NCBI RefSeq assembly: GCF_963678635.1
Contig: NC_087064.1
Span: forward strand, 32,617,028-32,681,027
Origin: Symsagittifera roscoffensis
Taxonomy: Eukaryota
Reading direction: 5' to 3'
DNA: 64,000 bases
Below the pieces are notes generated by a model. It did not search any database. It was not told the DNA's origin and saw nothing but the letters and a program-made list of their open reading frames with translations. Below, in pieces: positions 34,991-59,470 of the stretch. Position 1 is the stretch's first letter; every line of letters starts with the position of its first letter. Both the position numbers and the translations under genes were made by a program.

Positions 34991-35250
34991 ACTCCCAAAT
35001 AAAAGTACTCATTTGGTGGCATTTTTGCTATGATCACGATCTTTAGCATTGTAAATTTCATAGCATCTGCTCTCTGCTTTATTTGTGGCTAGTGTTTGTC
35101 GATCATTAAGTGTCCGTGGCAGAGTGGGCAATACAAGAGGCTCTTAATCTCGAGGTTGCTAGTTCGAATCCGTCGTTAAAAATGTTTAAAAATTTTGTTG
35201 TTTTGCTAGGTTTTGCGAAAAGCAGCTTCGCCTCGGGTATAAATAAAAGA
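34991..35250 (+). mobile_element. SINE-like element copy: tRNA-Lys-like head plus conserved GCGAAG hairpin tail
   Basis: GTCCGTGGCAGAGTGGGCAATACAAGAGGCTCTTAATCTCGAGGTTGCTAGTTCGAATCCGTCG has a CUCUUAA anticodon-loop-like segment and a GTTCGAATCC T-arm box. Tail is GCGAAAAGCAGCTTCGCCTCGGGT. Homologous over ~260 bp to 59191-59470. Confidence 0.6.
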
Positions 35251-36007
35251 TCTAATGATAATGGAAACACGCGTTAACCGCTGATGCAAATTGATACACT
35301 TCCGCGAGCAATTGTTATAATCGATGGCTCGATTTTATTTTCTCGAAAACAACTTTGCAGCATTAATCGTTGGAAGTTTAATTTTTCTAACCACATGTAA
35401 ATAGCCTTTCCGGCGTTTGTTGAACAGTTCATTGACATAGAAAAATTGGTAATATTCCAACGCATTTTAGTCAAAGATAGGAGTTAGGGTTTTTTCAGTT
35501 TTTGGTTTAAGTTTAGCTGTCTTATTTGCCCTGCTTTGATTGTTTTGAGCCCCTTGATCTTTCTTGCATATGTATTTCAGTTATCTTGCTCATTTTAAGT
35601 TTTAGCGGTGAAGATGAGTATTTTCCAAGGTCTTGCTTTCTATTTGTATGTCTTTTCACGAGCTTAGCGTAGTGTGGTAGCTTCTAAAAAAAATTTGAAT
35701 AAAAGTGCTTCTTTTCAGCGGCAATGTTGAATCAGTAAGAATCATTGGCACTTTCGTGATATGTGCTTTGACATCTGATTAGTAATAAGTTAACGCAGTT
35801 GATACGTTCTTAATTCGTCAATTGGAACAAAAAAAGCTATTTATTTCTTGCACCATTTTTACCCTTGCGATAAGCAAGAGTATTGCAATCGGGTACTAGA
35901 CTTTTTGGGCCTGTAAATAACTATGTTCACTGAAGAGTCAACATTATAAATTGTAAATTTAGGTTCAGTTCATATTGAATTCTATTTTTTTCGCGTATCC
36001 GTCACAT

Positions 36008-36062
36008 TTGGTCTGGAGGTAACGAATATGCCTGCGGCGGCCAAGGGTTCGAATCTCACAGG
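36008..36062 (+). repeat. tRNA-derived fragment, probably a SINE-head remnant and not a functional tRNA
   Basis: GGTCTGGAGGTAACGAATATGCCTGCGGCGGCCAAGGGTTCGAATCTCACAGGATC: D-loop-like and T-arm-like boxes, but no complete cloverleaf can be drawn. Confidence 0.35.
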
Positions 36063-37129
36063 ATCTGTTTTTTTTTTTCAAACGAGCAATATTCCGTCTC
36101 AAAAAAAATTGTCTGCTTATTATGTGTCTATATGTTTTGTCTCCTTAGTTGCCTTATTGTATTTTTTTTGTTTTACACAATTAATTTCTTTTTGCTTTAA
36201 ATGTTTTGATACATTTCTGCTATTTGTACTTCGTGTCTTCGTATATTTTCATTTTTTGTCTTTTCTTTCGCTTAGAAACTTTATTCTGCCCAAATGATTT
36301 CGGCTGAATCTTTATCGGCTTAATGACCTAATTTTCAGTCGTTTCAAAGGAAAAGTGTTATTGTTTTTTGCTCATTGGTTTGCATAAATTGCTCTAAATT
36401 TTATTGAAATTTTAGTTAGCTTTTTCTTGACGATATTTTGTTCGGCCTCATATTTTTCGGATAGGTTCTGTATTATATCGGTTTATGGCTCTATATGACG
36501 TGTTTCAACGAGCGAATCAACTTGTGCGCATGTGTGTGTTGAGGGCGAGGAGGAACTAATAATTGTTTATTAGTCTAAGTTTTTGGAATTTTTTATTGGC
36601 ATAATAGTTTTTGGTCTATATTATTTTGGCTTAGTGGTCTCCTGTTGTCTGATTTGACGAGCAATTAAAGTTTTGTGTGTGTGTTTTTAGGGTGAAGGGG
36701 ACTTGTTTTTTTTTCTTGGTTAAGTCTTGGCATGCAAAACTAGCGTTATTCATTCTGATAGATCTAGTTTGTTTTGATTTTTTTTTCGATTCTTTTCCCC
36801 GACTTTATTTATTACACGCAGAGTTAGTGCGGTTGCCTTTAGTTTATTGCATGCAAATGTTGAGGTTTCTGCATTTTAAAGCTCTTGAATCTTTGCCGCT
36901 TTCTCGCTTGTGTTTGCAAATTTACTTTTTCTAGTTCATTTTTCTGCATAAAATTTAGAAAAAACGATCGGTTTTGTTATTTTTGACTCAAATAACGTGC
37001 AAATTTTCTTTGTTTTTCTTTGACACCGTTTTGATGTGCGTCCGATTTCCGTTTTTTTCTTAAGAATTATGAAGGACTTCAAAAAGTTTTTGTTGAAAGT
37101 CATTTTGGTGACACTTAGCTCCATGCACT

Positions 37130-38560
37130 ACTTGAAATTTTCACTAACTGCAATTTGCTGCTCTTTTTGAAATTTTGCTGCACTTCTTGAAATTTTCACT
37201 AACTGTGCAATTTGCTGCTCTTTTTGAAATTTTGCTGCACTATTTGAAAATTTCACTAACTGTGCAATTTACTGCTCTTTTTGAAATTTTACTGCACTAC
37301 TTGAAATTTTCACTAACTGTGCACTTTGTTGCTCTTTCACTAACTTTGCAATTTGCTGCTTTTTAAAAAATTTTGCTGCACTACTTGAAATTTTCACTAA
37401 CTGTGCAATTTGCTGCTCTTTTTGAAATTTTACTGCACTACTTGAAATTTTCACTTACTGTGCACTTTGCTGCTCTTTCACTAACTGCGCAATTTGGTGC
37501 TCTTTTTGAAATTTTGCTGCACTACTTGAAATTTTCACTAACTGTGCAATTTGCTGCTCTTTTTGAAATTTTGCTGAACTACTTGAAATTTTCATTAACT
37601 GTGAACTTCGCTGCTCTTTCACTAACTGTGCAATTTGCTGCTTTTTTGAAATTTTGCTGCACTACTTGAAGTTTTCACTAACTGTACAATTTGCTGCTCT
37701 TTTTGAAATTTTGCTGCACTACTTGAAATTTTCACTAACTGTGCATTTTGTTGCTCTTTCACTAACTGTGCAATTTGCTGCTCTATTTGAAATTTTCACT
37801 AGCTGTGCAATTTGCTGCTCTTTTTGAAGTTTTGCTGCACTACTTGAAATTTTCATTAACTGTGAACTTCGCTGCTCTTTCAGTAACTGTGCAATTTGCT
37901 GCTTTTTTTGAAATTTTGCTGCACTACTTGAAGTTTTCACTAACTGTACAATTTGCTGCTCTTTTTGAAATTTTGCTGCACTACTTGAAATTTTCACAAT
38001 CTGTGCATTTTGTTGCTCTTTCACTAACTGTGCAATTTGCTGCTCTATTTGAAATTTTCACTAGCTGTGCAATTTGCTGCTCTTTTTGAAATTTTGCTGA
38101 ACTACTTGAAATTTTCATTAACTGTGAACTTCGCTGCTCTTTCACTAACTGTGCAATTTGCAGCTTTTTTTGAAATTTTGCTGCACTACTTGAAGTTTTC
38201 ACTAACTGTACATTTTGCTGCACGTTTTGAAATTTTGCTGCACTACTTGAAATTTTCACTAACTGTGCATTTTGTTGCTCTTTCACTAACTGTGCAATTT
38301 GCTGCACTATTTGAAATTTTCACTAGCTGTGCAATTTGCTGCTCTTTTTGAAGTTTTGCTGCACTACTTGAAATTTTCACGAACTATGCACTTTGTTGCT
38401 CTTTCACTAACTGTGCAATTTGCTGCTCTATTTGAAATTTTGCTGCACTACTTGAAATTTTCACTTACTGTGCAATTTGCTGCACTACTTGAAATTTTCA
38501 CTAACTGTGCACTTTGCTGCTCTTTCACTAACTGTGCAATTTGCTGCAACGATTTAAGTT
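37130..38560. repeat. Satellite: ~57-bp unit in higher-order arrangement, ~1.4 kb, inside an intron of the TSR/Ig gene
   Basis: TGCTGCACTACTTGAAATTTTCACTAACTGTGCAATTTGCTGCTCTTTTTGAAATTT repeated about 25 times with variant subunits (TGCACTTTGTTGCTCTTTCACTAACTGTG). Periodic pseudo-ORFs appear on both strands. Confidence 0.85.
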
Positions 38561-38620
38561 AACCAAGTGATTATTAGAATATTAGTCTTTGTCCTAAATC
38601 GTTTTGTTTTGGTGGTGCAG

Positions 38621-38792
38621 GCCTGTCATACTACGAACGTCGGTAAATCATGTGGGCGTGGAGTCAATACCAGGGACTTAGGATGTCAACAGAGACTGGC
38701 CGATGGTACCACTGTACAATCTCAACACTGTGACTTGAAAGATAAACCAAGTAGCTTCCGAGACTGCTACAAACCGTGTCCGGGAGATCAGT
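38621..38792 (+). CDS. Exon: another TSP1 repeat
   Basis: Acceptor GGTGGTGCAG|GCC. Encodes ACHTTNVGKSCGRGVNTRDLGCQQRLADGTTVQSQHCDLKDKPSSFRDCYKPCPGDQ. Donor T|GTAATT gives phase 1. Confidence 0.55.
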
Positions 38793-38858
38793 GTAATTTT
38801 TTTTCAGATTTAATTGCTGCTTTGTTTACTAAGAAGTTAATAGTAAGGTTATTTTAAG

Positions 38859-39495: not shown

Positions 39496-40103
39496 GTAAA
39501 TTTCCTCTCATTTAGAAGTTTGGAAGCTACGCTGTATTTGTTCCATCAAGTAACTGTTTGCAAGATCAATTTAATGTTGAAGCTGAGAGGTTTTGATAAG
39601 AAGTTTCGAGAAAAAAATTAAATCGAAATCGTCTCGAACTACGATGTTCAACTTGCCTGTTTGGATCAATCTGATCTCAAACGTTAACTCTTTCTATTGA
39701 GCTGTTTTTTTTACACAATAAACGCTGTGAATATAAAATAAGTATTTTTTTTACAAACTACCTTGCATGAGTTAAAGCTTAATTTAGCTTGTGTTTTATC
39801 CGCTGTGTTTAAGTCATGTATGTACTCTAGTTGCTTGATGGAACTGGTGGTTCAGCCAGGAAGACGTATGCTTCAAAATTCGGAAGCCTGAGATTTGAAA
39901 AGCAGAGAGGGAAACTGCTTATTTACTTTTTTTGTTTTTTCTTTCTTGCAGTTTTGAAGCTCCTGTTTTCCATGCTTTTTTGCTTGCGGTCGCGAAGCGC
40001 AGCTTTGCCTGTTTAAAGGATATGGAATTCAGTGCATTTTTGATGCTTTGTCTTTCATTTGTTTAAGCTGCTTCTGTGAGACAAAAAGCGCTTATTTTTT
40101 CAG

Positions 40104-40894: not shown

Positions 40895-42075
40895 GGAGGG
40901 AAACTGCTTATTTACTTATTGTTTTTTTTCTTGCAGTTGTAACAGAACTTTTTGAAAATTTTATATAAAAAAGCCGAAAAAACAAGAATTTTTTACAACA
41001 TTGTTTTCTTCTTAACAATGGGGGGGGGGGGAGCAATTGTTAAGTAGATTTATTGAGCCCGTTTTCTCAGATTGATTAAATTCATTTTTCCATTGAAAAT
41101 GCGTTTTTGAAATTTGGCATTTTCCGGTATTCTTCGGTTCCTCTAACTTTCCCATCTGTCTGTTTGCGAAGTTCGCGTGCATTCCCATTTTTCATTTTGG
41201 TTGTGCACGCAAGCGAAGCGTAGAAAAAAATCGCGTTTGGTAATTTCGATCAAAATCAAAAAAGGTAGAAATTGACTTTTTTTGTAGTTTTTTTATTTCG
41301 TCCCAATATTTGACGGTTATTTGTCAATTCAATTTATTCAATTCATTGTTTTATCCAATTCAATTTTGAAGAACGAAACTATATTTAACGGTTTTTTTAG
41401 TTTCTCTACACGCTAAAAGTATCAGTTAGAAAATGAAAAATTTTAAAGTGATTTTTTGTTTGACTTTTTTGAATGCTCTTTTCATTTTTTTGAATGCTTG
41501 GTTTCGTTTTTTGTTCCGAAAGGACTGGCAGTTAGCTAAAAGTAATGAAAAGTTTTGTTTGGCAATTTTGACTTTACTGTTTTGTCTACGAAGGTATTTT
41601 CTTATATTCTATCAAACATCTGGCGTAGAGGTATCACAAAGAGGCACAATCTACTGGCTCGAATCCGGCCGGGGTCTGTGTTTTTTGTAAACTTCATCTG
41701 TTGCTTTTTCGGACTATGGTTCGTTTGTTTATTTTTCTCGGCTCAGTTCCCGCAGAAAAGATTTTTTTTTGAAAATTCGGCTTCTTTCTAGCATTCCCAA
41801 AGCTTCTTGTGAAGTTTCTAATCGAACAGGTAGTTTTGTTCCGGACTTTTTTTGGCTTTTTTGCAATTTTAATATTTTATTTTGGATTTTTGATTTTTCT
41901 TGTCATTTGATTTTAATCTTAGTCATTCATTTTTGTTTTGCTAGTGGTGAGAATTTCAGCTTCGCCTCTGTGTTTAGATTTATATAGGGTCAATGAACGA
42001 AGTGAAGACACTACTTAAGTAGTGTTGTTTTTTCGGCTTTTTTATATTAAATTTTAAAAAGTTCTGTTACAAGAA
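40895..42075. mobile_element. ~1.2-kb segment bounded by ~65-bp terminal inverted repeats (candidate non-autonomous DNA element)
   Basis: 40915-40978 (CTTGCAGTTGTAACAGAACTTTTTGAAAATTTTATATAAAAAAGCCGAAAAAAC) is the reverse complement of 42012-42072. The interior holds SINE-tail motifs (41165-41230, 41950-41990). Confidence 0.35.
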
Positions 42076-42784
42076 AAATTGGACTGATTTTTGCTAGTCA
42101 GACTCAAATCAGTGTAGGTAAGTTGTCTGAATTCTCAGCATCCTCATTCCAACGACGATTTTTAGACAAAGTTAGCTCGAGAAAATCGACATTACCTCGA
42201 GGATTAGGCAAGCCTATCTGTTTTATCTATCGTTGGAAGAAACATACACATGAACATTTTTAACACCATTTTAGGTACATCGGGGAACTAGTTGATATTT
42301 TGTAGTAGTACATTGAAGCCATTTCAGTCGTGATTCTGATTCCAAAAAAATCAATAATTGTTTTTGTGTCAAGAAATCATTTAACTAATATGACGCCAAA
42401 ATTTTTTGAAATTTCAAGCCTTTTTTTTCTTTTTTCTGGCGTTGAGTTTCAAGTCTCTTATGATTAAACTGAAGAAAAATAGTGTTTTGTTTCTTTTATA
42501 ACTTTTTCCTATGTTACCGTGCTCAGAACCTCCTGTGCTACTGGCCCAGCAACCGAACTTGTATCTAGTTAGCGTATCTTTTTGAATTTCCCTTTTCGCA
42601 GAATCATCTGTGTCAAGTATGTTATCGTCTTTTAAAGCTCTTTTTACCATGGCTTCTTATTTTCGATTGCACCTTAATCTTGTCTTGTATTGGCGAGTAT
42701 TCATCAAATGCATCATCAGAGTTATTCAATTTTCTCACGTAAAATGTTTTTTTTTGATTTCATGGTCATTAGGCTGCCAAAATA

Positions 42785-43530
42785 CAGTGCTGATTTAAAT
42801 TAACCGGACAAAACGCGTTAAACTTGAAATTTAAAACGAGTTTTTCTCAAATTGGGTTCAGTTTAGGTGAAAACTTATGAAGACAAGAGTTGCTTGAAAT
42901 TTTTGCAGAATTAATATGGTGTAATTTGTTTTGCAAAATTCGGGCCCAAAATTTTACCCCAAAAATGGGTCATTTTGGCTTTTCTTAGTTAATCAAAAAT
43001 TACGCCAAAAATACCCAGTCGATCACAGACATAGTTATATCAAAGAGAGCGCCTTACGTTGCCCAACAAACTTTCAGAAGGGTATATTCTCAAAAAAATG
43101 CAAACCGTTTAAAAATTGTTTTTAAAATAAAAAGTTGATGTTTTATATAGTAAAAACGACCTTTTTTGTCTATCAACCAAAAAAATTTATTAACTTATTC
43201 AATGTTTTGGTGAATATACCCTTCTTAAAGTTTGTTGGGCTACGCAAGGCGGCACTCTCTTTGATTTAATTATGTCTGTGATCGACTGGGTATTTTTGGC
43301 GTAATTTTTGATTAACTAAGAAAAGCCAAAATGACCCATTTTTGGGGTAAAATTTTGGGCCCGAATTTTGCAAAACAAATTACGCCATATTAATTCTGCA
43401 AAAATTTCAAGCAACTCTTGTCTTCATAAGTTTTCACCTAAACTGAACCCAATTTGAGAAAAACGCGTTTTAAGTTTCAAGTTAAACGCATTTTATCTGG
43501 TTAATGTCCGGTTAATTTAAATCAGCACTG
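42785..43530. mobile_element. Foldback element, copy 1: 746-bp near-perfect palindrome
   Basis: CAGTGCTGATTTAAATTAACCGGACAAAAC...GTTTTGTCCGGTTAATTTAAATCAGCACTG. The arms 42785-43140 and 43175-43530 are reverse complements with very few mismatches. Flanked by TA on both sides. Confidence 0.8.
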
Positions 43531-44479
43531 TATTGCAGTTAGTTGCGTTTCATCTGACAGCAATTTTTTAAATTCATTAAAACACATGAATAATTTGAAT
43601 TAATAAGTAGGTCTAATGTATCACCACCTGCATTATCACTGAAATGACTGTTTGATAACTGAACATAGGACTGGTGTTAGTTGCTGAAAAGTCCTCCTTT
43701 TACGGTCATATGCGTTTCATCTCTGCCAGCTTGAACCTACAATTTGGACAAATATGCACAATATCCTGGCAAGGGGTGCACACAAAGGGTAGCCAGAAAA
43801 GGGGACAGAATAAGAAAGCCAGCAGGAATGACCAGAGCCAGGTTGCCAGTCCTATTTGTGTGCGGGTGAATGACCAGACATTCTGGTTACAGTTTGGACA
43901 GTAGAAGCCCATGGGCTCGTCCACTATCAGGTAGGGTCTTATGTACTGTGTGCTGGCCGTGTAGGCAGTTGGCTGCGCGTAGAAATGCTCTCCTAAATAG
44001 TGTCATGATTTATAAATAGTGTTATGAAAAATCTGATTAATTAAGTTTTCTTAGGTACAACTGATTGTAATTACTATCAAATTTAAAATAAAAATTAAAA
44101 AAACAGGAAACTTTTATCGTGAATGTAAATTTTGATCCGAATACGTGAAAATTCAGCCCTTTAAGTCCTATAGGTAGATTTGACCTAAAGTTGATCTAAA
44201 TTTGTCCCATCCTCTCAAATAAGTTGTACTGCAGATATTGTAATTTTTTAAAGCATGATTTCAGTAGCTGTTATTTTTTTACGAAAATTTTCCCCGCATT
44301 TTCAATTTAGTGTGCGGATTAATATATTTTAATGATTTATTCTCAATTTTCAACGAAACGTTTAGTCAATATTTTATTCTGAAAATTCATTGTTTTGCTT
44401 TGTAAAAAACTTGGCAATTTTTAGCCTCTATTGGCAATTTGTTGACACTTTTTTGCCTTCATTGGCAATTTGATACCCC

Positions 44480-44745
44480 GTGTTTATCTGCCTTATTAGT
44501 GGTTAGTGGGACCGTCTACGGCAAAATGGATGACATCTATCTCCCCCTCGGAAGCAAGACCCGAGATTGGGACCGGGGGCAATTAAAAAAGGAAATGGGA
44601 CTCTTAATCTCAAGGTTGCGGGTTTGATTCCATTTCATGGCAAAAGTTTTTTTCAAGGCCTGTTCTCACTTAAGAGTTATTTTTCGGCGTTTTGTTGCTT
44701 GTGTTTGCGAAGTGCAGCTTCGCATCTGTGGTCTCAGCACCAAAA
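44480..44745 (+). mobile_element. SINE-like copy with tRNA-like head and GCGAAG tail
   Basis: ...GGGACTCTTAATCTCAAGGTTGCGGGTTTGATTCCATTTCATGG then ...GTGTTTGCGAAGTGCAGCTTCGCATCTGTGG. Confidence 0.45.
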
Positions 44746-44819
44746 GCTTTAGCTTTTTTTTTCTAACATTTAGAATGAATAACCTTCTGAATAACGTTCC
44801 TAATGGAGCAGATGAGATC

Positions 44820-44820
<1 letters not shown>

Positions 44821-44851
<31 letters not shown>

Positions 44852-44872: not shown

Positions 44873-47696
44873 CTAATTCTTTCAACAGAATATTAAACAT
44901 AGAAATAGCAGACATTTTGCCTTTTTTTAATGATTTTTTTTTCGGTTTAGTTGCCTCATGAAGCGTCGTTAATTTAACAACGTTCGTCTGCCCCGTTACC
45001 TCTTGATAAGTTTTATTTAATAATAAATTTATCACTGCTAGTTGTTTTTTTTTGGAAAATTTTTTCCTCCAATTGAACGTACTAAATGAATCGAAATTTG
45101 GGTTGAATTTTGATCATTTTTTCAAATTTTTTTGGCTCACTGGTTTTCGTTTTTGTTGTTTTGAATATTTGTTTTGCCATTAAGAGTAGATGAACATAGT
45201 GAAGTCACCAATATAGTTCGAGATAGTTTTTTTTCGATTTTTGCGGTTTGATTTTTTGAATAAACTTGCGAGAGCAAGTGTCTTGTAATGGGGAACTAGA
45301 CTATTTTCCGCGTAAAAAACTATACTTATGAGAAATTGAACTTATTTTTATCATTGAATCGTAACAACTTCTAGGTTCCATCGCATTTAGCCTAAAGGTA
45401 ACACGGCTGCTTTTGCATCCTATGGTGTGGCTTCGATTCACGGCAAGACCTTGTTTTTTCAGTATGTAAAATTGAATTTTTTTCCGGTAAAAATTAAATA
45501 GTTGGACTTTCGTTTGTCTGCTCAAGTTCTGTCGGCTTAGGTGCCACATCTATGATTTTTTCTTAGCTGTAAGCAAGAATCATGGTAATTGCAAGTGTTG
45601 TTCCTTCTAGTTTCAGGAGAGAGTGACTTGAAACTTTTTAAAGTTTCATAATAATAATAAAGCGTTTTTTCAGCTCAACTAGTGTCTGCTCAAAAGATTG
45701 TCGTCTTTGTTTCCGCTTTCGTAAAATGTTCCTATGCTTATTTAAAATTCAAATGTCATGCTTGACATGTTTGCCTAGACTTCTTGTGTGATAAAAACAG
45801 GTATTATGAAAATGATTGGGTTTTTTTTATTTTTTAATTTTTTGAGACGCTTTGGTAAATTTTGCGGAATTTTTAAAAAGGTAATCAAAAAACCCTTTTA
45901 AAAATCAAGGTCATCAAAGGTAATAAAACACCGGTTAATCAAAAAAGGGTATCAATGGAAAGACCGCCTACTCCCCTGCGAAAATCTCCTCTGCGCAAGC
46001 GGCTTGGGCCAATTTTACACATAAAGCTAGGATTCTCAGTAAAATCACATTATTGATTTGACCGTTTTTTGGAAACTTTTTAGCTTTTCTCACAAACTAC
46101 GCCGCCAATTCTCAAGATAAGTGTGCAATCGCGAAACCCGGTTTATGGAATTTTTTCTGCTTTAGCGACCATGACCTACTTTTTGCAGAAAAACAATTAT
46201 TGATAGCGGAAATTCAAGTTTTTGAAGTTTTGACGTTTTTATAAATTTTTTGAATTTACTTAAAACCTACCCTTTCGAAAGAATCGGTTGTGAGACTTTT
46301 TCTGTAGAAGTGGCGACGCCTAAATTTTTTGTAAGAAAAATGTTGTGTCTTTGGGAAACTTTCAATATCTCAAAAATTTTCAATCTTCTCACCTATTTTA
46401 TTAGAGAAACTAAGATTTCGGGCGAAGTCCAATATTTGATATTACTCATTTCATCCCGCATCAAAAGAACAAATTAAAAAATATCAAACACATATTTTAG
46501 TAGGGCCTCTAAAATTGTTTTATCGAGACATAAAGACAATTTTCGTTCACCTAGTTTTTTTTCAACATTTTTCATTTTTTTTCTACTTATGTTTTTTGTT
46601 TGTTTTTATGGTATTGCATGTGGTGCGAAGCTCCACTTCGTCTCGATGCTTATTTTGAAGTCCAGTTCCTTTCCTTCAAAAAATGAAGGCAAATTTGCTA
46701 TCAAATAGCAAAAGTAACAAGGTCACGAAAAACATGATTGTCTTCTAGTTTAGCAAGTGGAATTTAATTTCAGATTTTCCAGCGGAATTTTTTTTAAACC
46801 TATAAATCCAGTTTGCTAGATGGGATAATTTTATCAAAAAACAGCCAACTATAGTTTTTCTGGAAATGCGAAGGTTTTTAAGGCCATAGATTTATTACTT
46901 TGTGATTCGAAAGTTGAATGTTTTTTTTTTTCAAGAAAGAATTTAGTGTTTTCTCTGTTTCCTTGCGCTCATTGACTCGTTTCCAACTGTCTGTTTTTTT
47001 TTCTTTGACTTTGCATTTTAATAGTCCGAAGCTTCGCTCGCCCTCTGTGTCTACTTTTGAATGGTGCAATACTTTAAGCTACTAACCATCTTCTCTGCTA
47101 CTAACTATTTTCTCTGCACCAGTTTTGTATCGCAACTGGTGCAAAGCTCCTGCTTGGCCTGTGTTTGAAGTTTTTTTGCCGTAATCGAAATGAACGCCAG
47201 CTTTCTTGTCGTTCCGAAACTCGGGTTGAAAAATATATCGCTGCGTTGGAATTCTATTTTCGGTCTAAATAAATGAAATTCATTTCGGGTTTGGTAGAAT
47301 TTTGTGTTTCCTTTTGAAACTGGAAAGTTGAAAAATGTACAAAATAACTTGAATAATTTATTTTCGGTTTCATTGAGTTCATTAACACTGATCCCATTGC
47401 CTGTTGGTTATGTTTTGAGATTTTGTAGGAATGCAACTTTCAAAAAATACAAGCGCTTCTGTAAAAAGCGCTTGTGAAAATTTAAGGCGAAGAATTTTTT
47501 TTTTGAATTTGCTGTTTTTTAGTTTATTAGATATAAGGAAAGTTAATGTAGTCGCTATTTGACATAAAAGTTGAGCAGATCTTCAAATTTTGCGAAAACT
47601 TAGTTTCAACCGAAAAAAAAATTTCACTAAAATTATGTGATTTTTATTTGTCCCAAACTGATTTTTGTTGCTCTGGCGATTCTTCAGAACCACTAT

Positions 47697-47772
<76 letters not shown>

Positions 47773-47812
47773 ATCTATATCTATCTATACCTATCTATAT
47801 CTATCTATACTA
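47697..47812. repeat. (TATC)n microsatellite, about 25 units, with degenerate 3' part
   Basis: TTATCTATCTATCTATCTATC... runs of CTAT; produces the spurious ORFs 47637-47872. Confidence 0.9.
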
Positions 47813-47959
47813 TATTTAACTGCTAGTGACAGCTATCTCCCATGTTTAAGCATAATATTTTTGCATGTTTAACGAAAGAATTTTTGCACGTTTAAGCTAT
47901 ATCGTATATTGCAATGGTTAATTTTTTTCGACTTTCCAGTTTGAATTCAGTGATTATTC

Positions 47960-49480
47960 CACCGAGTTTAAAATAAGCAGCCCAATAGTGGTACGCTGTC
48001 AGGATTCCCCAAGGGGTTGCGAATTTGGCCTCCAATTAAGAATGCTCAAATCCTTTTAGTGTACGAGTGCGACGATTACAAAATAATTTACAAAACATGA
48101 AAATCCCAACTCTGTAGTTGGGTGCTTTCAGAGTACTCTCGAGGATTGCGAATCTTTTCTCCAAATGTGACGGCTCAAATCCTTGTAGTTTCCGAGATAT
48201 GACGTTTTTTGTGATTTTTTTTTTAAATTTTCAGAAAACTTAAACGAAATTTTTTTCTTAAAAATTTCACATTCTCAACCATGTATTTGGGGGCTATCAG
48301 AGTACTCTCAGGGGTTGCGAACCTTGCTTCCAATTATGACTGCCCAAATCCTTGTAGTTATCGAGATATGACTTTTTTGTGATTTTTTCAAAAAATTTTC
48401 AGGAAACTTAAACGAAATTTTTTCTTCAAAATTTCAAATTCTCAAACATGTAGTTGGGGGCTATCAAAGTACTCTCAGGAGTTGCGAACCTTGCCTCCAA
48501 TTATGGTTGCTCAAATCCTTGTAGTTTTCGAGATATGACTTTTTTGTGTTTTTTTTTTCAAAAGTTTTCAGAAAACACATTACAAAATATTTTAGAAAAC
48601 TTGGAATTCTCAACCCTGTATTTGGGTGCTATCAGAGTAGTCTCTAGAATTGCGAATCTTGTCGCCAATTATGACGGCTGAACTCCTCGTAGTTGTCGAG
48701 ATATGACGTTTTTTGTGATTTTTTCAAAAAAAATTTCAGGAATTTTAAACGCAATTTTTTGTTCATAATTTCAAATTCTCAAACCTGTATTTGGGGGCTA
48801 TCAGAGTACTCTCAGGGTATCGAACCTTGCCTCCAATTATGACTGCTCAAATCCTTGTACTTTTTGAGATATGACCTCTTTGTGATTTTTTCAAAAAACT
48901 TTGAGGAAACTTAAACGAAATTTTTTTCTTCAAAATATGAACTTCCCTTCCCTGTAGTTGGGGGCTATCAGAGTACTCTCAGGGTATCGAACCTTGCCTC
49001 CAATTATGACTGCTCAAATCCTTGTACTTTTTGAGATATGACCTCTTTGTGATTTTTTCAAAAAACTTTGAGGAAACTTAAACGAAATTTTTTTCTTCAA
49101 AATATGAACTTCCCTTCCCTGTAGTTGGGGGCTGTCAGAGTACTCTCAGGGTTGCGAACCTTGCCTCCAATTATGACAGCTCAAATCCTTGTAGTTTTCG
49201 AGATGACGTTTTTTGTGATTTTTTTGAAAAAGTTTTCAGGAAACTTCAACGAATTTTTTTTTTCAAATTCTCAACCATGTAGTTGGGTGCTGCCAGGGCA
49301 CTCTCAGTCGTTGCGAATCTTGCCTCCAAATATGACTACTCAAAAATTTGTAGCTCTCGAGATTTGACGTTTTCGGGATTTGACGGAAAATTGGAATTAA
49401 AAAAAGTTTATAAAGTTTGAAATTACCAACCCTGTAATTGGGTGCTGTCAGAGCACACTAAAAGCCTGCAGATCTGGTTT
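47960..49480. repeat. Satellite with ~165-177-bp unit, about 9 copies
   Basis: Recurring GGGGGCTATCAGAGTACTCTCAGGGGTTGCGAACCTTGCCTCCAATTATGACTGCTCAAATCCTTGTAGTTTTCGAGATATGAC...AAACGAAATTTTTTTCTTCAAAATTTCAAATTCTCAA, with landmarks at 48118, 48289, 48466, 48627, 48791, 48962, 49126, 49290 and 49443. Confidence 0.85.
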
Positions 49481-50635: not shown

Positions 50636-50959
50636 GTCAGTTCATTTACAAAATTGTTTTTAAAAAAATGCGCACTTTCTACCATAATTTTTCTCGACAA
50701 AAAGAGTTCAACAGGTTTTTTGTGATGCATTTTCACAATGGGATATTTGTTAACCAACACAGCTTTAGAATTGTTACCCTTGCGACAGCAAGTGTATTGC
50801 AATCGGGTACTAGACTTTTTTCCCGTAAACAACTTTGTCCACAGGGCTCATTGGACTCATTGCACTGGCGGTACCTCGGCTCATAATGAATTCAAGTTTG
50901 GTAGTGTCTCTTGCACACTTAGCTTGGTGGTAACAAATAGAGTTTTTTGCTTTTTCGGT

Positions 50960-51360
50960 TTATTGTCCGTCTGTTTATTTTTGTCGGCTTAGTTCCCGTA
51001 GCTCGATGGTTCAGCTTTATTCCAAGTTGCTGTAACCCCAATGCTTGAAACGACAAAGCCCGGAAGTTCGATTCCAATTGAAACTTGTTTTTCTTGCACA
51101 TAGAAAATTTTGGCTACTTTAGATTGTCTGCTTAGTTTTTCAGAAAGGACTTTTTTTGAAAACTTGGTTTTCTGTATAGCATTCTCAAAGCTCTTCGTAG
51201 AGTTTCTTATGGTGCAGGCAATTTTGTTCCGGATATTTTGGGCTTTTGTAGCAATTTTTGATGACAAAAACGACTTTTTGAATTTCCGTTTGATTTTCAT
51301 AGTCAATCATATTTGTATCGCAAATGGTGCGAAGTTCAGCTTCGCCTCGGTGTATCAATA
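50960..51360 (+). mobile_element. SINE-like copy (tRNA-like head ~51000-51085; GCGAAG tail 51325-51350) inside the IFI27-like intron
   Basis: CCCGTAGCTCGATGGTTCAGC...CCCGGAAGTTCGATTCCAATTG (A-box and B-box-like) ... GGTGCGAAGTTCAGCTTCGCCTCGGTGT. Confidence 0.45.
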
Positions 51361-53381
51361 ATGGCTTTAACAAGTTATTAAATGACGCACAATAACTTTT
51401 CTGCCAAAGTTCTTTGTTGTTCCCGAATAGCCGAAATATTTGCTTAACTATGGGACTTAAAATGCAAACTCTGATTCACGCCGTATAATTCTCTCGCAGA
51501 ATTTAAGCGCAGCGGAGGAAGAGCGCGGTAGTTGCCATCATCGTGTACTCAATAAGTATATTTATTTTGCTACATTTCAATATTTTTGGGTCAGATCCGA
51601 GAGAATTTTTTTGTGAGCGGAGTATTTGACTTTGTGACATGCACCCAAGTTATAGAGGTTTCAGAAAAAGTCCGGATGTGAATGGTTTATTGGTGTTTGC
51701 TATATTGACGTGAAAGCTCCCTCAGTTTTACGTTAAGGTTTTTTTTTAAAATGAAGTATGCCCTGATAGTGCATTCGGGTACTAGACGTTTTTCCCTTAA
51801 ATAACTTTGTTCACAGAATAGTCAGTTTTATAGAAACGATAAATTTCTGAAAGTTCAAAAGAACTAATCGTCATTTAGGTAGTCAATAGGTGGAGTCTGT
51901 TTCTGGTAAATTTCTTGAAAAAATGTCATTTTTTGCTGATTTGTTGTTTTCGGTCTAGTTTCCGATTTTTCATGGCTTTTGTTTGAGCTGGTTCTGTTTT
52001 TCAGCTTACTTTGTAAATTTTAGATTTTTTTATTTAAAATTTTTTGCTATAATTTCTCTAATTTGTCATTTAACCAAGTCTGGTTTTCATGAATTCATTT
52101 TTTTTTTCAATTAAAGGTTTGCAGCTTGTTTTATCGTCTTAGTCAGCTTATAATGCGTAGTTCTGAGGACACACAAGTTCATGTAAGAGAAATCAAGGTA
52201 TTATGAAAATGTATGGGATTCATTTTTCATTTTAATTAATTTTGAGATTTTTCGGAAATTTTTTCATTTATCGCTTAGATTTTAATTTTCCTCAAAAGCT
52301 ACTTCACCGATTTTCAAAATATTGGACCAATGGAAAGACCGGTTACTACATTGTGCGTCTGCATATTTTGCTAGTCATTTTTCTTTGCAGTACTCACCAT
52401 CGACGACCTTTGAAAATTTCAACGGGGGAATGTTTTTTTCGTTTTTTTTTTTGCTTTTTTTTCTCAGAATACCCTGCCAAATCTGAGATAAAGGTTTCAA
52501 TGGAAGGAAAAGATAGCAGGGATCTTTTTTACATACGCCGCTACGCGTTAATTTTTAAAGAAAGTCGCTCCGCTTCGCCTTTGTTTTTAAAATTGATGGC
52601 CAGGCTCTTTCCAAGACCAACGTGTTTTGACGATGCTCCCTTCTGTTATGAATCAAAATTTTTAAAAAGTTAAATCCGATTAGCTCTCATTTATTGCGTA
52701 AGTCAGGATTTAATTGCATTAAGTTGAGTGCAATACCGGGCAATCAAATTGCGTTGTCTTAGCAAAACAGAGAATTTACAAAGTAAATTTGAGAAATTCT
52801 CACATAGTTATAGAAAGGTTATTTATACATCTGAAAGGTTGATTTCGAAGACCGCGGATTGATGCAAGAAAACGAGGGAGAAATGCGCATTTTTTTTTCG
52901 TTGCATGTGTCGCATATGAAGTAATATCAGTTGATCTAAGACGATATTGATAAAAGTTCTAATGAAAATAGAGAAACAAATAGAGAACAAGAAAATTATT
53001 ATTTTTTTTCGATAAGAACATGAACTAAAAAAAAAAGAAATCATGACTACAATATAATGCAAATAAAAGCTAAAAATTAGAGTTAGTTGTTCTGTCATTT
53101 CTTGAGTATGCTATCACTTCCGTCAGAAAAACCACAGCTTTGAAAAAGATTTCGAAATATCTCGGAGCCTTATCAATCTCTTTTAGGCATATCAAGAACT
53201 CTTTCGTGTGTATTTCGCCGCTTATCCGTATTTTTTATTAGATTTGAATCATTATCCGAACAGTCTCAAAGTATTATCCGTTTCCGCAAACTATTGCTAC
53301 GGCCTCGAATGACCTTCCCCGTCTTGTCTGTTTTCGCTTCCGGCCCACAATATCTCCCATAAAAACCAACTGAACAATCTC

Positions 53382-54642
53382 GGGGCAGTACAACAGTGCC
53401 GAAGTACAACAGTGCCGAAAATGAAAACTTTGTTCAACAGTGCCGAAAAGGAAAACTTTGTCCAACAGTGCCGAAAGTTTGAATAATGTTCAACATACTA
53501 AGTGCGACAATCAAAAATTAAACAGCGATCGTTTACAATCTTCAGTAAAACTTTTAGATTTTGAGCAAGAAAATTTGCAATTTAGACGTTTTGGCGCCAA
53601 AATAATTGTTTATTTTGAAGTTGCAGACATATTGGCGCCAAAATTGGAGCGATTTTCTTTGATAATTAGCGTCAGTAATTTCCCGCTCTTTAGAAAATGC
53701 GTGTAAATTATTCTGCAATTTTCCCGCCATTTTCGGGCTCTTTTCCAGTTTCCCCCCCTTTCAAATTCAGTTTTGAAAAGCTTATTTAACGTTGTCATAA
53801 TGCAATGAAATTTGGCGTGCTGAACAAATCGACAACTGTGAACAGATTTGTTCTTCATACTTTACAGCGTAACATCACGCATTTAGCCGTAATAACACGT
53901 AGAACAAACATAAAACTCGGTATTTTGAAAGGGGGGAACTGGAAAAGAGCCCATTTTCGGCACTGTTGTACTTCGGCACTGTTGAACGCCCCCACAATCT
54001 CTCCCCTAGAATTGGGGGCGTTCAACAGTGCCGAATAAGGCGGGAAAATATCAGAATAATTCACACGCATTTTCTAAAGAGCGGGAAATTACTGACGCTA
54101 ATTATCAAAGAAAATCACTGCAATTTTGGCGCCAAAACGTGTAAGCTGCAAATTTTCTTGCTCAAAATCTTGAAGTTTTACTTAAGATTGTAAACGATCG
54201 CTGGGGGACCGACATTTTACCAGACCGACCTTTTACCAGAAAAGTTATAATATGGACCCTTTACCAGACTCGATAAACAAATTTGATTGACAGATGTATT
54301 GACGCCGTTTAGTCTGGTTAAAGACAAGGATTTCACGGTTTTTCAGCAAAGTTTTGTTTGTTCTAACCGCTTCTTTTTAGAATCTTCCACTAATTTAAAT
54401 TCATCTTAAACGAATTATGACATTTTGGTCTAATAAAAGGTCGGTCTGGTAAAAGACCTAGCCCCGATCGCTGTTTATTTTTTGATTAATGCACTTAATA
54501 TGTTGAAGTTTGTTCAAATTTTTGGCACTGTTGAACAAAGTTTTCATTTTCGGCACTGTTGAACAAAGAATTCATTTTCGGCACTGTTGAACAAAGTTTT
54601 CGTTTTCGGCAGTGTTGTACTTCGGCACTGTTGTACTGCCCC
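53382..54642. mobile_element. Composite non-autonomous DNA-transposon-like element with long TIRs carrying subterminal repeats
   Basis: The left end GGGGCAGTACAACAGTGCCGAAGTACAACAGTGCCGAAAATGAAAACTTTGTTCAACAGTGCCGAAAAGG... has four CAACAGTGCCGAA subterminal repeats. The right end 54520-54642 is its reverse complement (CGGCACTGTTGAACAAAG... x4 ...CTTCGGCACTGTTGTACTGCCCC). Inner arms 53525-53760 and 53925-54200 are also mutually inverted. A nested 75-bp mini-palindrome lies at 53970-54045, and a further inverted pair at 54196-54240 and 54440-54475. Confidence 0.65.
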
Positions 54643-54689
54643 CTAGAATTAAATGTAAATGACAAATTCAAGCTGTAAGGCTTGCAGGT

Positions 54690-55080
54690 GGCGTCCCTCA
54701 TGCTTGAAGAACCGAATGCTTGAAATTAATTTTAGCTTACTTTCAGCCAATCAGTAAAATCTCAAAGTAAATCGCGAAACTCTCAAAGTAAGAAAATAAA
54801 TCCAGGCCATTAGTGTTAATATTGACCGATTAGATAATAAGCAGATGAGTTTTTGAGATTGAAAAATTCTGATGATTTTGACCTCATTAATCTTGATGAT
54901 TATCTGAATAGTATTGCGGTTGTAACTCGCAATTTGTAATTTTTTTGATTATTTTCCACTGATTTAATACATTTTCTGTTAATATTGACTTCGATTTTGT
55001 GAGAAAGGCATTTAGCCAATAGAAACGCTTAGCGATTTGGATTGGTTAAAATTTTTCAAGCATTCGGTCCTTCAAGCCTG
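54690..55080. mobile_element. ~390-bp MITE-like element with ~40-bp TIRs
   Basis: 54690-54726 GGCGTCCCTCATGCTTGAAGAACCGAATGCTTGAAAT versus 55046-55080 CAAGCATTCGGTCCTTCAAGCCTGAG (reverse complement). The CGAAGGACCGAATG motif is shared with 56394-56475 and 57535-57560. Confidence 0.45.
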
Positions 55081-56035: not shown

Positions 56036-56100
56036 ACCAATGGTCTTCTTACCATTGTACCAATTTGTTCTTTGTACCAATTTGTTCTTTGTACCAATTT
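56036..56100. repeat. Minisatellite, ~20-bp unit x3
   Basis: CTTACCATTGTACCAATTTGTTCTTTGTACCAATTTGTTCTTTGTACCAATTTCTTCTTAG. Confidence 0.7.
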
Positions 56101-56393
56101 CTTCTTAGTTGGTCAGCCAGCTGTAGAACTGATTGTATTTATGAGCAGTTTTTTATAAACTAAAATGGGAATTGCACGAAGTTTAGTTTTGATCAATGAA
56201 AGACATTAAACTTACTAATACGTTTTTTTTCCAGAATTTTTCTGAGGGCAGTTTGGGCTTTTAATATGGTGAACGAGCTGAACCCGCCCAACATGGGCTA
56301 AAGAAAGAAAGAACGATTTTTTTGCAGTCTCGTGTTAAAATCTATAGACCATATATTTTGTTAGTTGTCTTCTCAAACGAGGGCTATTCTCAT

Positions 56394-57560
56394 GCGCGAA
56401 GGACCGAATGAGCGAAAAAACTCGTGAACGGGGGCTATTCTCATGCGCGAAGGACCGAATGAGCGAAAAAACTCGAAAATAAAATTAGCCGAAAGGCAAT
56501 TTTTAAAAAGAAGCAATGGCCATTCAATTAAAATGAATTGAATAAAGCAATATTTTGCTTCTTTCATTACGAAACCCTTGAAATATAAAATTTGTCCGAA
56601 TTTTGCGGCGGTCAATGACAATTTGAAAATTTCGCATATTTCTGCAGTTTTTACAGTGCTGATTTAAATTAACCGGACAAAACGAGCAAAGCTTGAAATT
56701 TAAAACGCGTTTTTCTCAAATTAGGTTGAGTTTAGGTGAAAGCTTATCAAGACAAAACTAGCTTAAACTTTTAGCAGAATTAATATATTGTAATTTGTTT
56801 TGCGAAATTCGGGCCCAAAATTTTACCCCAATAATGGGTCATTTTGGCTTTTCTTAGTTAATAGAAAATTACGCCAAAAGTACCCAGTCGATCTAGACAT
56901 AATTATACCAAAGTGAGCCCCTTACGTAGCCCAACAAACAAGTCTCCAAAAAAATTTGCAAACCGTTTAAAACTTGTTTTAAAGTAAAAATTTGATGTTT
57001 TATATAGTAAAAACGACCTCTTTTGTCTATCAAACAAAAATAAATTAACTTATATAATATTTTGGAGAATATACTCTTCTTAAAGTTTGTTGGGCTACGT
57101 AAGGGGCTCACTTTGGTATAATTATGTCTAGATCGACTGGGTTCTTTTGGCGTAATTTTCTATTAACTAAGGAAGCCAAAATGACCCATTTGTGGGGTAA
57201 AATTTTAGGCCCGAATTTCGCAAAACAAATTACAATATATTAATTCTGCTAAAAGTTTAAGCAAGTTTTGTCTGATAAGCTCTCACCTAAACTCAACCCA
57301 ATTTGAGAAAAACGCGTTTTAAATTTCAAGCTTAGCTCGTTTTGTCCGGTTAATTTAAATCAGCACTGTAAAAACTGCAGAAATATGCAAAATTTTCAAA
57401 TTGTCATTGACCGCCGCAAAATTCGGACAAATTTTATATTTCAAGGGCAATATCAATACTCCAGTCACTAGAAATGTTTACTTTCTTTCCAAATTTTAGA
57501 TTAGTGAAATCTGATTGGCTGATTTTTGTTTTCGCGCATTCGGTCCTTCGCGTATAAGGG
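56394..57560. mobile_element. Outer palindromic MITE (~1.17 kb) of the CGAAGGACCGAATG family, carrying a nested insertion
   Basis: 56573-56653 is the reverse complement of 57369-57450 (..TTTGTCCGAATTTTGCGGCGGTCAATGACAATTTGAAAATTT..). The outer parts 56394-56475 (duplicated GCGCGAAGGACCGAATGAGCG) pair with 57530-57560. The inner foldback interrupts at a TA. Confidence 0.5.
56654..57368. mobile_element. Foldback element, copy 2 (715 bp), nested in the outer palindromic MITE
   Basis: Same termini as copy 1 (CAGTGCTGATTTAAATTAACCGGACAAAAC...CCGGTTAATTTAAATCAGCACTG), roughly 90% identical. Flanked by TA. Confidence 0.8.
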
Positions 57561-57851
57561 ATTCCACCTTCTCAAACTACTCGCGGACCGAGTTTGAGCA
57601 TATTATTACATAGGGGTCTATAATTGGAACTAACCTTTCTTACTCTCTTGCACTAATTTCAAAGTGTTTTGCTTTATCGGTTGTTGTCTTGTGCGGGACT
57701 GGGTTATTGCGTGAATGGCAAAAATTTTGATGGATTTTGTGTTAGCGTCATTTTCTGTCGTTTTGAAAACTAGCCGTTAATCATTAGCCGTCGTGATTAT
57801 TTCGTACAGCGTGTTTCTACGAATATGAATTTTAATTTTAGTGTTTTTTAG

Positions 57852-58124
57852 TCTATTGGAGCTGGTGGGCTTAAGCTGGGATCATACGTAATGCTTGGTG
57901 GAATGGGAGCTGCGGGTGGTGCTGGAATTGGGTACAAGTTAGACAGCGACAAAAGCTCCAGCGAAAAAACTATAGAAATTCAAGAAAACAAAAACTTCTC
58001 TTGGGCAGAATCAATAGAAGCCGGTGTCCAAAAAAGTTCCGAAGTAGTTGGAAATGCTGCGGGGAGCACATACGGCTATATTAAAAAAATCCCAAGCAAA
58101 ATTGGCAATCTGACTAAATTGTAA
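57852..58124 (+). CDS. Exon 2 (terminal) of the IFI6/IFI27-like gene
   Basis: Acceptor TGTTTTTTAG|TCT, phase 0. Encodes SIGAGGLKLGSYVMLGGMGAAGGAGIGYKLDSDKSSSEKTIEIQENKNFSWAESIEAGVQKSSEVVGNAAGSTYGYIKKIPSKIGNLTKL*. The junction ...GSLAATLQ|SIGAGG... parallels IFI6 ...GGLVATLQSLGAGG..., and GYKLDSDKSSSE parallels IFI6 YATHKYLDSEEDEE. Confidence 0.65.
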   Translation, partial: SIGAGGLKLGSYVMLGGMGAAGGAGIGYKLDSDKSSSEKTIEIQENKNFSWAESIEAGVQKSSEVVGNAAGSTYGYIKKIPSKIGNLTKL

Positions 58125-58133
58125 GCTGACGTT

Positions 58134-58700
58134 TAGTTTTTGGTCAAAATTAACTTGAAATTTCACTGTTATTCGATTGCTTCGGTGACAACAAATATGA
58201 ATTTCCATGAAAGTGAATTACGATTGCACATTTTCTTTTATTGCGATTTTCATAAACGGTTTAATATCGCTTGTTTTGTAGATTGACAGTTATTTATTTA
58301 ACAATAATTTATGTAGACAATTAGCTAATGGGGCTTAAGTGCAGGCGTTACTTACAAATGCTTTAGTTCTATCCTCTCCCATCGTCTATGTTGTATTATG
58401 GTTGAAATTTGTTGATAAAGAAAGAAAATATTCCACAACATAATTTATTTTCTTCATAAGTCATGATTAATCTTTGATTATAAGTCAGACTCTTTTGATT
58501 CTAGCATGCTTGAAAAAGTGAAGGAGTTATGACGGAGGTGAGTCTTTTTCTGCGATTTTATGTACCTCGTTGAAATCTTGTCGGGAATCCAGTGTGGCAC
58601 AACACTAAAACCATTTAAATCATGATCTGAATTACAAAAAGAAAATTTAAAAAAAACTATCTGATTTCTCTACTTTTTACTTTGGCGAGTGAATGAAGAT
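58134..58700 (+). repeat. Segment X: 3' flank of the IFI27-like gene, duplicated at 62838-63400
   Basis: TTTTTGGTCAAAATTAACTTGAAATTTCACTGTTATTCGATTGCTTCGGTGACAACAAATATGAATTTCCATG... to ...CTATCTGATTTCTCTACTTTT matches 62838-63400 at ~90%. The duplication starts 10 bp after the stop codon. Confidence 0.7.
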
Positions 58701-59190
58701 TCAAATGCCAATTTGATTCTAGATTCAGAATACATAATTGAAACTTATGTTCGTTCGTAAAATTGCATATAAATTGATCATTTTTTGTACTATTTTTTTC
58801 TTTGCAAATATTACTGTGGACGAAACATGTTTTGCTGTTTGCAAAGACACCAACTTCTATTTCTTGTTTATCCATCCAATTTATTATACAGAGTTTGAAT
58901 CAACCCGCAGAAAACTTTTTTCAATTTGGAACAATTAAGCTTTAAATATAAATTGACACTAGTTTGGAATAGCCTCGAAAATAGAAATCTATCTTTTAAC
59001 ACTTGGTGTTGATCAAGAATTAGCGAATAGGTTTATTGATTTCTTTGTTGACTAAGTTCGCAAACTAGCCCTTATCTTTATGCCTGATGCCAATAAGCTG
59101 GAATGTCTAATTCCACTAAAAAATTGCTCTTTTTGTTACACTAGCCAGCAGCGTTTTATTAATACGTACCTTCTTTTTTTTCTAATCTAA

Positions 59191-59470
59191 CTCGCAAATA
59201 AAAGTGTTCTTCAAAAGTATTCACTTATTTGGTGGCACTTTTGCTATAATCGCAATTTCATAGGATCTGTTCTCTGCTTTATTTGTGACTAGTGTTTGTG
59301 ATTTATTGAGAGTCCGTGGCTGAGTGGTTAGTGCGTGAGACTCAAAATCTCTAGGTTGCAGACCGAATCCGAGACGTAGTCGATTTTTTCTTATTGCACT
59401 TTATAAAGCTGCCTGTATCGTGTTCTCGGTAGTGTTTGCGAAGTGCAGCCTTGTCTCTATTTTAAATCGA
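59191..59470 (+). mobile_element. SINE-like copy (tRNA-like head 59311-59380; GCGAAG tail 59440-59465)
   Basis: Homologous to 34991-35250. Head GTCCGTGGCTGAGTGGTTAGTGCGTGAGACTCAAAATCTCTAGGTTGCAGACCGAATCCGAGACG. Tail GTGTTTGCGAAGTGCAGCCTTGTCTC. Confidence 0.55.

Follow-up and report, generated by a model that had tools for sequence, protein, structure and literature searches.

The question raised by a 64,000-nt stretch of the Symsagittifera roscoffensis genome (contig NC_087064.1, positions 32,617,028 to 32,681,027; hereafter the window, whose numbering is used unless another locus is named) is whether the hairpin-tailed repeats in its second half are short interspersed nuclear elements (SINEs), as proposed in an original prediction on account of a tRNA-Lys-like head and a conserved hairpin tail, or mobile elements of a different build. 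Comparison of the copies with one another and with further loci, amounting together to ~210 kb of readable DNA searched on both strands, supports a mobile, non-coding family in which leader, tRNA-like unit or units, body and hairpin tail follow one another in a fixed order. The reading preferred here, to which we give a probability of roughly 0.55, is that its two forms, long and short, are old non-autonomous retroposons of the non-long terminal repeat (non-LTR) type, SINE-like in the broad sense and atypical in build, which spread by priming at the tail.

Copies, common tail and architecture of the family

All well-preserved members end in a common 3' tail of ~45 nt, TTTGTATCGCAAATGGT-GCGAAGY-TCA-RCTTCGC-CTCTGTG, followed by a short and variable AT-rich end. 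An nhmmer profile built from 14 tails gave nine matches in the window (E 2e-14 to 6e-7), confined to the + strand and to the interval 34.7-59.5 kb, with zero matches in the flanking 1-34.7 kb and 59.5-64 kb, and the 12-mer CAGCTTCGCCTC (≤2 mismatches) was found 8 times in the window against 2.05 expected. A dispersed family, as originally proposed, is thus borne out, and so is its abundance (10 or more copies in 25 kb had been claimed) at the local scale of nine tails in 25 kb; in ~85 kb of the same genome chosen for their long interspersed nuclear elements (LINEs), admittedly a biased sample, the density drops to about one tail. The earlier list of copies needed correction in several respects. 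Of the proposed tail fragments, three (41165-41230, 47030 and 52550) fall short of E<1 with the tail profile, those at 35215, 44700, 51325 and 59440 are parts of headed copies and had been counted twice, and a full copy at 34455-34804 had been overlooked. The motif GCGAAG-N4-CTTCGC, given as the signature of the hairpin, has no match even with one mismatch allowed, because the true spacer measures 5 nt.

The four copies described as having heads proved to be real and fall into two pairs, c1 with c4 (69-74% identity over ~280-350 nt) and c3 with c5 (72-73% over ~240 nt), so that divergence between pairs of window copies is ~30%; the two types have in common just the tail of ~45 nt and, upstream of the tRNA-like part, one short block. 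Open reading frames (ORFs) across the elements are short and without family matches, indicating no coding capacity. The family members of the window are collected in Table 1 together with the other features of this DNA; c0, c1, c2 and c4 denote short-form copies, c3 and c5 long-form copies, and U and B the modules of the long form.

Table 1. Hairpin-tail family members and other annotated features of the window, with E-values from nhmmer for tails and from the unit profile for tRNA-like units.
Feature	Positions	Strand	Tail (E)	Details
c0, short form	34455-34804	+	34750-34804 (2.2e-7)	leader TACACAAGCGAAC..., degenerate tRNA-like part; 34502-34619 matches c4 59228-59343 (BLAST)
c1, short form	34933-35236	+	35184-35236 (2.8e-9)	tRNA-Lys-like segment 35112-35172 with A-box-like TGGCAGAGTGG, CTCTTAA and B-box-like AGTTCGAATCC; hairpin ~35214-35231
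U module alone, no tail behind	35860-36153	+		leader TACCCTTGCGATAAGCAAG (small 5' hairpin); tRNA-like unit 35989-36149 (E 3.7e-27), then T11 run
Tail-only copy, 5'-truncated or decayed	39963-40012	+	39963-40012 (1.3e-8)	
c5, long-form 3' part	41602-41973	+	41916-41973 (1.4e-10)	single tRNA-like unit 41602-41747 (E 1.1e-24), body, tail; without the second unit present in c3
c2, probably short form, 5' end unclear	44480-44730	+	44674-44730 (8.7e-8)	tRNA-Lys(CUU)-like 3' half 44595-44631 (GGGACTCTTAATCTCAAGGTTGCGGGTTTGATTCC)
Probable decayed full-length long form	45261-46648	+	46601-46648 (3.4e-8)	U module 45261-45571 (unit 45369-45541, E 6.7e-21), 1.39 kb from tail; middle too diverged to align, hence taken as a single element from the spacing
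Tail-only copy, long-form type (GTATCGCAACTGGTGCAAAG...)	47115-47165	+	47115-47165 (1.2e-8)	
Long-form copy, internally shortened	50775-51353	+	51297-51353 (2e-14)	U leader 50775-50939 joined to c3 (50935-51353); c3 tRNA-like unit 50999-51137, B-box-like 51065-51075, hairpin 51329-51345 (GCGAAGT/TCA/GCTTCGC)
U leader fragment alone	51757-51846	+		repeat family D18
c4, short form, decayed tail	59137-59461	+	59407-59461 (5.6e-7)	tRNA-like segment 59312-59371 with TGGCTGAGTGG, CTCAAAA and AGACCGAATCC
Pao/BEL-type pol	7.9-14.3 kb	-		
APE+RT LINE, nearly intact, ends in (CAA)n	19076-22710	+		ORF1 224 aa; endonuclease and reverse transcriptase (RT) ORFs split by a frame break
Copia-like element	26-33.4 kb	-		
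TSP1_ADAMTS and Ig exons	33.9-40.3 kb	+		
LITAF-like exon	43706-43924	-		
IFI6/27-like exon	near 50.5 kb	+		

The short form (c0, c1, c4 and probably c2) spans ~300-350 nt, and the long form (c3 with its U leader, c5 and the element at 45261-46648) ~1.0-1.7 kb, within which a U module precedes a B module and three tRNA-like units are accommodated. Both begin with a leader of the type TACMCWWGCGA..., which in the long form contains a small hairpin at the very 5' end (CTTGC-GAYA-GCAAG). The U module (~320 nt) consists of the leader TACCCTTGCGAYAGCAAG..., one tRNA-like unit and a T7-T10 run; the B module adds two more homologous units, each with a T-run and a spacer ending in GTCTGYTTATTTTTGTCGGCTTAGTT, and then a ~200-nt body and the tail, the spacers between units measuring ~70-90 nt. 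The U-then-B order is repeated at locus L006 (8470-10151), at locus L005, where it is split by two later insertions, and at 50775-51353 of the window, and it probably recurs at 45261-46648 of the window and at locus L008 (17590-18892). Homology between the U leader and the opening ~55 nt of the short-form leader places both forms in one family with common 5' and 3' termini. The L006 element includes an internal tandem duplication of 578 nt (8780-9358 / 9357-9936, 99% identical) that covers two of its tRNA-like units; it is also present in a second assembly (L007) and therefore represents a recent internal duplication.

Copies elsewhere in the genome and the mode of spread

Further copies were reached by way of an 83-aa chance ORF spanning c3, through which four ORFs on ENA contigs led to loci L005-L010. 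These loci carry c3-type copies at 74-85% identity in unrelated flanks, the relatives in L005, L006 and L008 being 80-85% identical to c3. The contig of assembly ERZ25071366 designated L010 matches window positions 41229-61360 at 99.35%, and the second assembly, ERZ25878734, does so at 96-98%; in the latter no family member shows a presence/absence difference, and the only change is a 68-nt deletion in the tail of c4 that takes out half of its hairpin. Two LINE loci of other species (L011 and L012) contain no family copies.

The three best-preserved copies outside the window are flanked by target-site-like duplications of 13-25 nt abutting the element ends, as determined by a gapped, position-restricted comparison with p values taken against shuffles. 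In L006 the repeat is 15-16 nt long (TACCCATTTTGATGA / TACCGGATTTTGCTGA) and touches both the leader and the 3' end, in L005 it is 22-25 nt (TCCTTCTCTGGCACCGATATCTTTT / TCCTTTGCCACCGAGATGTTTT; p=0.008), and in L008 it is 13-20 nt, around TACTATGAT(A/G)C...GAC(A)TTTG (p=0.02). The copies in L005 and L008 are moreover 5'-truncated, starting inside the element, and have a complete tail. Long duplications of variable length combined with 5' truncation point to target-primed reverse transcription by a LINE enzyme, a process summarised in PMC1636434. An ungapped 14-mer search for target-site duplications did no better than its control and was abandoned. As to terminal inverted repeats, the reverse complement of the tail stayed at or below the shuffle level within 800 nt upstream in 11 of 11 copies, and an apparent terminal match (TTACAC.../...GTGTAA) did not beat shuffles.

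On the preferred reading, a stringent-type LINE would supply the reverse transcriptase, which would recognise RNA of the T-rich (+) strand at its 3' tail and copy it into a nicked target from the tail end, generating target-site duplications and frequent 5' truncation. The tRNA-derived units, one to three per element and Lys-CUU-like in the short form, may be cargo or vestiges rather than the promoter of the whole transcript, and the transposing RNA would most likely arise by RNA polymerase II (pol II) transcription or host read-through. Stringent-type LINEs recognise a 3' stem-loop and share their tails with SINEs, recognition by the LINE protein being documented for UnaL2 and zebrafish LINEs (PMC1636434; PMC4176376). 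The tail of the present family offers a candidate for such a structure, a hairpin of 6-7 bp, GCGAAG(Y)...(R)CTTCGC, for which 7 bp in the stem and 3 nt in the loop are one possible assignment. Within the 14 tails 89.7% of stem cells pair in register, as opposed to 33-46% when the partner strand is slid; folding predictions return the hairpin for good copies (z about -1.6 to -2) and no longer for decayed ones. It is kept as sequence, with covariation at the level of shuffles, so that a role in recognition is suggested by analogy with UnaL2 and the zebrafish LINEs.

Several observations weigh against the retroposon reading. The nine window copies have no convincing target duplications, as might be expected if they are old, and the evidence for retroposition consequently comes from the three copies outside the window. 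The covariation score of the hairpin, calculated from 14 sequences, equals that of shuffles (195-374 of 500 reach it), and most of its substitutions turn G-C into G-U, the change to be expected from CpG decay. No LINE ending in the tail was encountered in the window or in L001-L008 (~210 kb readable, not the whole genome): the window LINE ends in (CAA)n, and the L005 LINE that separates U from B is bounded by a ATATTTCACTTTTT repeat of its own and ends A-rich, marking it as a later insertion. The original prediction had suggested that a partner LINE could recognise the hairpin; no such LINE appeared among those compared with the tail. Pieces consisting of the 5' part only (35860-36153, 51757-51846 and L008 14432-14522) add to the difficulty. 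Finally, all eleven pieces of the window lie on the + strand and the two to three pieces each in L006 and L008 are likewise co-oriented, a pattern with a chance of ~2^-13 if orientations are independent and one that random retroposition does not predict.

The same LINE evidence bears on the alternative that the copies derive from an autonomous LINE outside the sampled DNA, some by internal deletion and others as its 3' ends after 5' truncation, the leader being the start of its 5' untranslated region (UTR), the tail the end of its 3' UTR, and the tRNA-like units parts of the UTRs; the parent would be an ORF-bearing element bounded by TACCCTTGCGA... and the hairpin tail. Conserved termini around an interior that varies from 0.3 to 1.7 kb, the many tail-only pieces and the target-site-like duplications of some copies all accord with such an origin, but no copy runs upstream into coding sequence, in L005 the sole adjacent RT ORFs are those of the later-inserted LINE with its ATATTTCACTTTTT repeat, and tblastn with that LINE finds nothing near the other copies. 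We regard this origin as unlikely. The L005 LINE, of the RT plus restriction-like endonuclease type, had been considered as the autonomous parent and was rejected for its own repeat and A-rich end. It extends over 4972-8330 and encodes a PHD-like finger, an RT with the motif GGIRPIGIGE and a C-terminal region with CCHC and the RHN restriction-like endonuclease; no matches to it are found in precomputed Pfam tables. The LINE in L008 was also dismissed as a partner, being unrelated: the B copy that follows its ORF2 was inserted separately, is 5'-truncated and has a flanking repeat of its own.

tRNA-like units, transcription and strand bias

Textbook tRNA-derived SINEs have a tRNA head with A and B boxes at the 5' end, are ~100-700 nt long and non-coding, and lack internal terminators (T4+) of RNA polymerase III (pol III). 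Set against this range, the short form measures 300-350 nt and the long form 1.0-1.7 kb, neither with meaningful ORFs, and in neither are the tRNA-like parts terminal. In the short form ~180 nt of conserved leader precede the tRNA-like part, and in the long form the units start from ~130 nt to >500 nt into the element, the first of the three at ~130 nt. Over the family as a whole, the offset of the tRNA-like part within the conserved leader is 55-190 nt or >500 nt. Every unit is followed within ~15-25 nt by a T4-T10 run that is kept among copies, and each element contains 3-18 T4+ runs on the tRNA-sense strand. A tRNA-Lys(CUU) BLAST query, approximate and not the host's own sequence, has its three best matches in the whole ~210 kb in the heads of c2 (E 1.7e-4, 85% over 33 nt), c1 (1e-3, 35123-35177) and c4 (3e-3), which suggests that the short form carries a decayed tRNA-Lys-related segment. 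The unit of c3 is of a different tRNA-like type. A-box-like and B-box-like motifs ~31 nt apart are present in c1 and c4, the B-box pattern alone being only ~2x enriched. ARAGORN made no tRNA call in the window and eight further loci, and Rfam gave no tRNA at E≤1 over the window and none at E≤10 on 1.8-kb stretches holding elements; relaxed ARAGORN thresholds returned 31-216 unspecific calls that did not single out c1, c2 and c4 and were discarded. The tRNA-Lys-like head of the original prediction is therefore retained as a segment of c1, c2 and c4 recognised by BLAST, but it is not 5' terminal and is called by neither ARAGORN nor Rfam; the CTCTTAA segment described for the heads holds for c1 and c2, but not for c4 (CTCAAAA) or c3 (its different unit).

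These data bear on how far the elements can be classical tRNA-derived SINEs, that is, transcribed by pol III from the tRNA-Lys-like head through body and tail and copied by a partner LINE. The spaced boxes of c1 and c4, the ranking of the three heads among tRNA-Lys(CUU) matches, the conserved tail, and the target-site-like duplications and 5' truncation of other copies are what such elements would display. Yet the leader common to c0, c1, c4 and the long form lies ~180 nt upstream, outside any transcript started from the A box; a T4-T10 run stands behind every unit, and the 3-18 T4+ runs present in each element should halt pol III short of the tail; the long form reaches 1.0-1.7 kb with three units; and neither ARAGORN nor Rfam recognises a tRNA. 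Promotion of the whole element by pol III from inside is made improbable by these T-runs, and since a pol III transcript from the A and B boxes would lack the leader and end before the tail, the transposing RNA is more likely a pol II or read-through transcript. A classical SINE seems unlikely. What stands of the SINE interpretation is that the family is mobile and non-coding and that its short form is apparently tRNA-Lys-related; what does not fit are the internal units, the T-runs and the missing partner LINE in ~210 kb. A tRNA head plus hairpin tail readily suggests a SINE, against whose internal pol III promotion the leader, the T-runs and the three units argue.

As to the strand bias, masking the elements leaves the + strand of the window domain rich in T (AT skew -0.107); genes on the + strand occur there, and in L006 the copies run in the sense direction of dynein exons. 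However, the cluster also encloses the LITAF exon of the - strand, and no skew is seen at the other loci. A further explanation would deny the tRNA-like parts any promoter function. Transcripts of the T-rich strand, made by pol II or from host genes, would carry the element, and the embedded units (tRNA-like segment plus T-run) would serve for processing, in the manner of RNase P/Z signals, or for stabilisation, and so release or mark RNA carrying the hairpin tail. Same-strand clustering over 10-25 kb would then reflect a strand-specific step and not chance, for instance if elements are inserted or retained according to the direction in which the DNA is transcribed or replicated. We hold it to be a long shot.

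Co-orientation would also be accounted for by a non-autonomous rolling-circle or single-strand DNA transposon (Helitron- or Helentron-like), with the hairpin as terminator, a captured interior and strand-specific insertion. Helitrons leave no target-site duplications, have 5' TC and 3' CTRR termini and insert at AT. The hairpin ~8-17 nt from the 3' end, heterogeneous interiors, strict co-orientation at three loci, the 5' hairpin CTTGC-GAYA-GCAAG of the long form and tandem arrays nearby would agree with such an element. Against it, variable direct repeats of 13-25 nt flank three copies, the ends are TACMC... and ...CTCTGTG plus an AT-rich end in place of TC and CTRR, there are no terminal inverted repeats, and no Rep/helicase was seen in the sampled DNA, so that we judge a Helitron-like nature very improbable. 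Least credible of all is that the pieces are not mobile here and were left by the old duplication of a local block, in tandem or segmentally, or that they represent a cis-element conserved for the resident genes: nine tails in 25 kb where ~0.2 would be expected from the other loci, all on one strand and with a recurring order of an element and then a U module 400-600 nt later, could be taken that way, but homology breaks off abruptly where the elements end, c3 resembles copies on other contigs (80-85%) more than it does nearby c5 (72%), and those copies have unrelated flanks and duplications of their own.

Genomic surroundings and comparison with known systems

The window is animal genomic DNA of ~35% GC, rich in retroelements. 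Around its Pao/BEL-type coding region lies a 298-nt direct repeat (7628-7924 and 17177-17474, 9.5 kb apart, 98% identity), probably the long terminal repeats of a recently inserted Pao/BEL-type element. The APE+RT LINE is 96% identical to a copy in L001 (assembly ERZ25071366), and dozens of its protein clusters at 83-90% in the same assemblies suggest a young, active family; its closest named relative is from the acoel Convolutriloba macropyga (52% identity). Two elements of ~750-870 nt (42781-43534 and 56575-57447), ~86% identical and self-reverse-complementary, resemble foldback or miniature inverted-repeat transposable elements (MITEs), and the former has weak Rfam plant-miRNA-family matches at 43047-43254, as MITE hairpins produce. 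At L009 12484/12489 the second assembly lacks a ~1.0-kb stretch (53695-54712) that the window and L010 both contain. This stretch coincides in part with a long hairpin (inverted repeats 53382-54643), the source of the only Rfam matches here (MIR7533/MIR2619-like, far below the gathering score), and its junction has no clear terminal repeats or target duplication.

Tandem repeats are frequent. Between family copies lie an array at 37099-38586 (~1.5 kb, units spaced 121+20 nt) and a 167-nt satellite at 48075-49381 (~1.3 kb) with a B-box-like GGTTCGCAACC on the - strand, and elsewhere a 48-nt tandem array (16262-17137) and (CTAT)n (47665-47820) occur. At the right end of the window a twofold repeat (58132-58680 / 62846-63403) and a threefold one (59739-60695 / 61210-62184 / 63449-64000), at 87-96% identity, have no connection with the hairpin-tail family and represent either a different repeat family or duplication on the spot. 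A ~9.4-kb tandem duplication considered behind the repeated spacings of families D18 and D20 was discarded, the self-BLAST matches being short and non-collinear.

For annotation, ~5 kb of the 25-kb stretch, and similar pieces across the genome, are to be masked as one retroposon family in two size classes and should not be read as tRNA pseudogenes or regulatory hairpins. On the preferred reading these are old non-autonomous retroposons with tRNA-derived inserts, of an ordinary kind; the family would rise above the routine if co-orientation and embedded tRNA-like cassettes were confirmed throughout the genome.

The literature on acoel SINEs, when searched, yielded nothing useful. Several known systems are comparable. 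Like non-autonomous Helitron and Helentron elements, the family has a subterminal 3' hairpin ~10 nt from the end, heterogeneous interiors and tandem arrays nearby, and unlike them it has flanking direct repeats and neither TC...CTRR ends nor asymmetric terminal inverted repeats. The SIDEs of R2, which are internally deleted non-autonomous LINE derivatives, resemble it in that both termini are conserved around an interior that varies and that the 3' end is precise and not poly(A), whereas the present family carries tRNA-derived cassettes and has no autonomous parent in view. Dimeric and multimeric tRNA-SINEs such as Twin of Culex contain more than one tRNA-related unit per element, as does the long form, whose units differ in their terminator-like T-runs, in spacers of ~70-90 nt and in the first unit not being 5' terminal. 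From tRNA-derived SINEs that share their 3' tail with a stringent-type LINE, such as the eel UnaSINE1/UnaL2 and zebrafish L2-type pairs, the family departs in its internal tRNA-like part behind a conserved leader, in up to three units each with a T-run, in its many sense-strand T-runs, in an oversized long form, and in having no terminal short-repeat array and no partner LINE in ~210 kb. With them it nevertheless has in common a tRNA-related segment, a non-poly(A) 3' end with a short conserved stem-loop, target-site duplications, 5' truncation and a non-coding nature.

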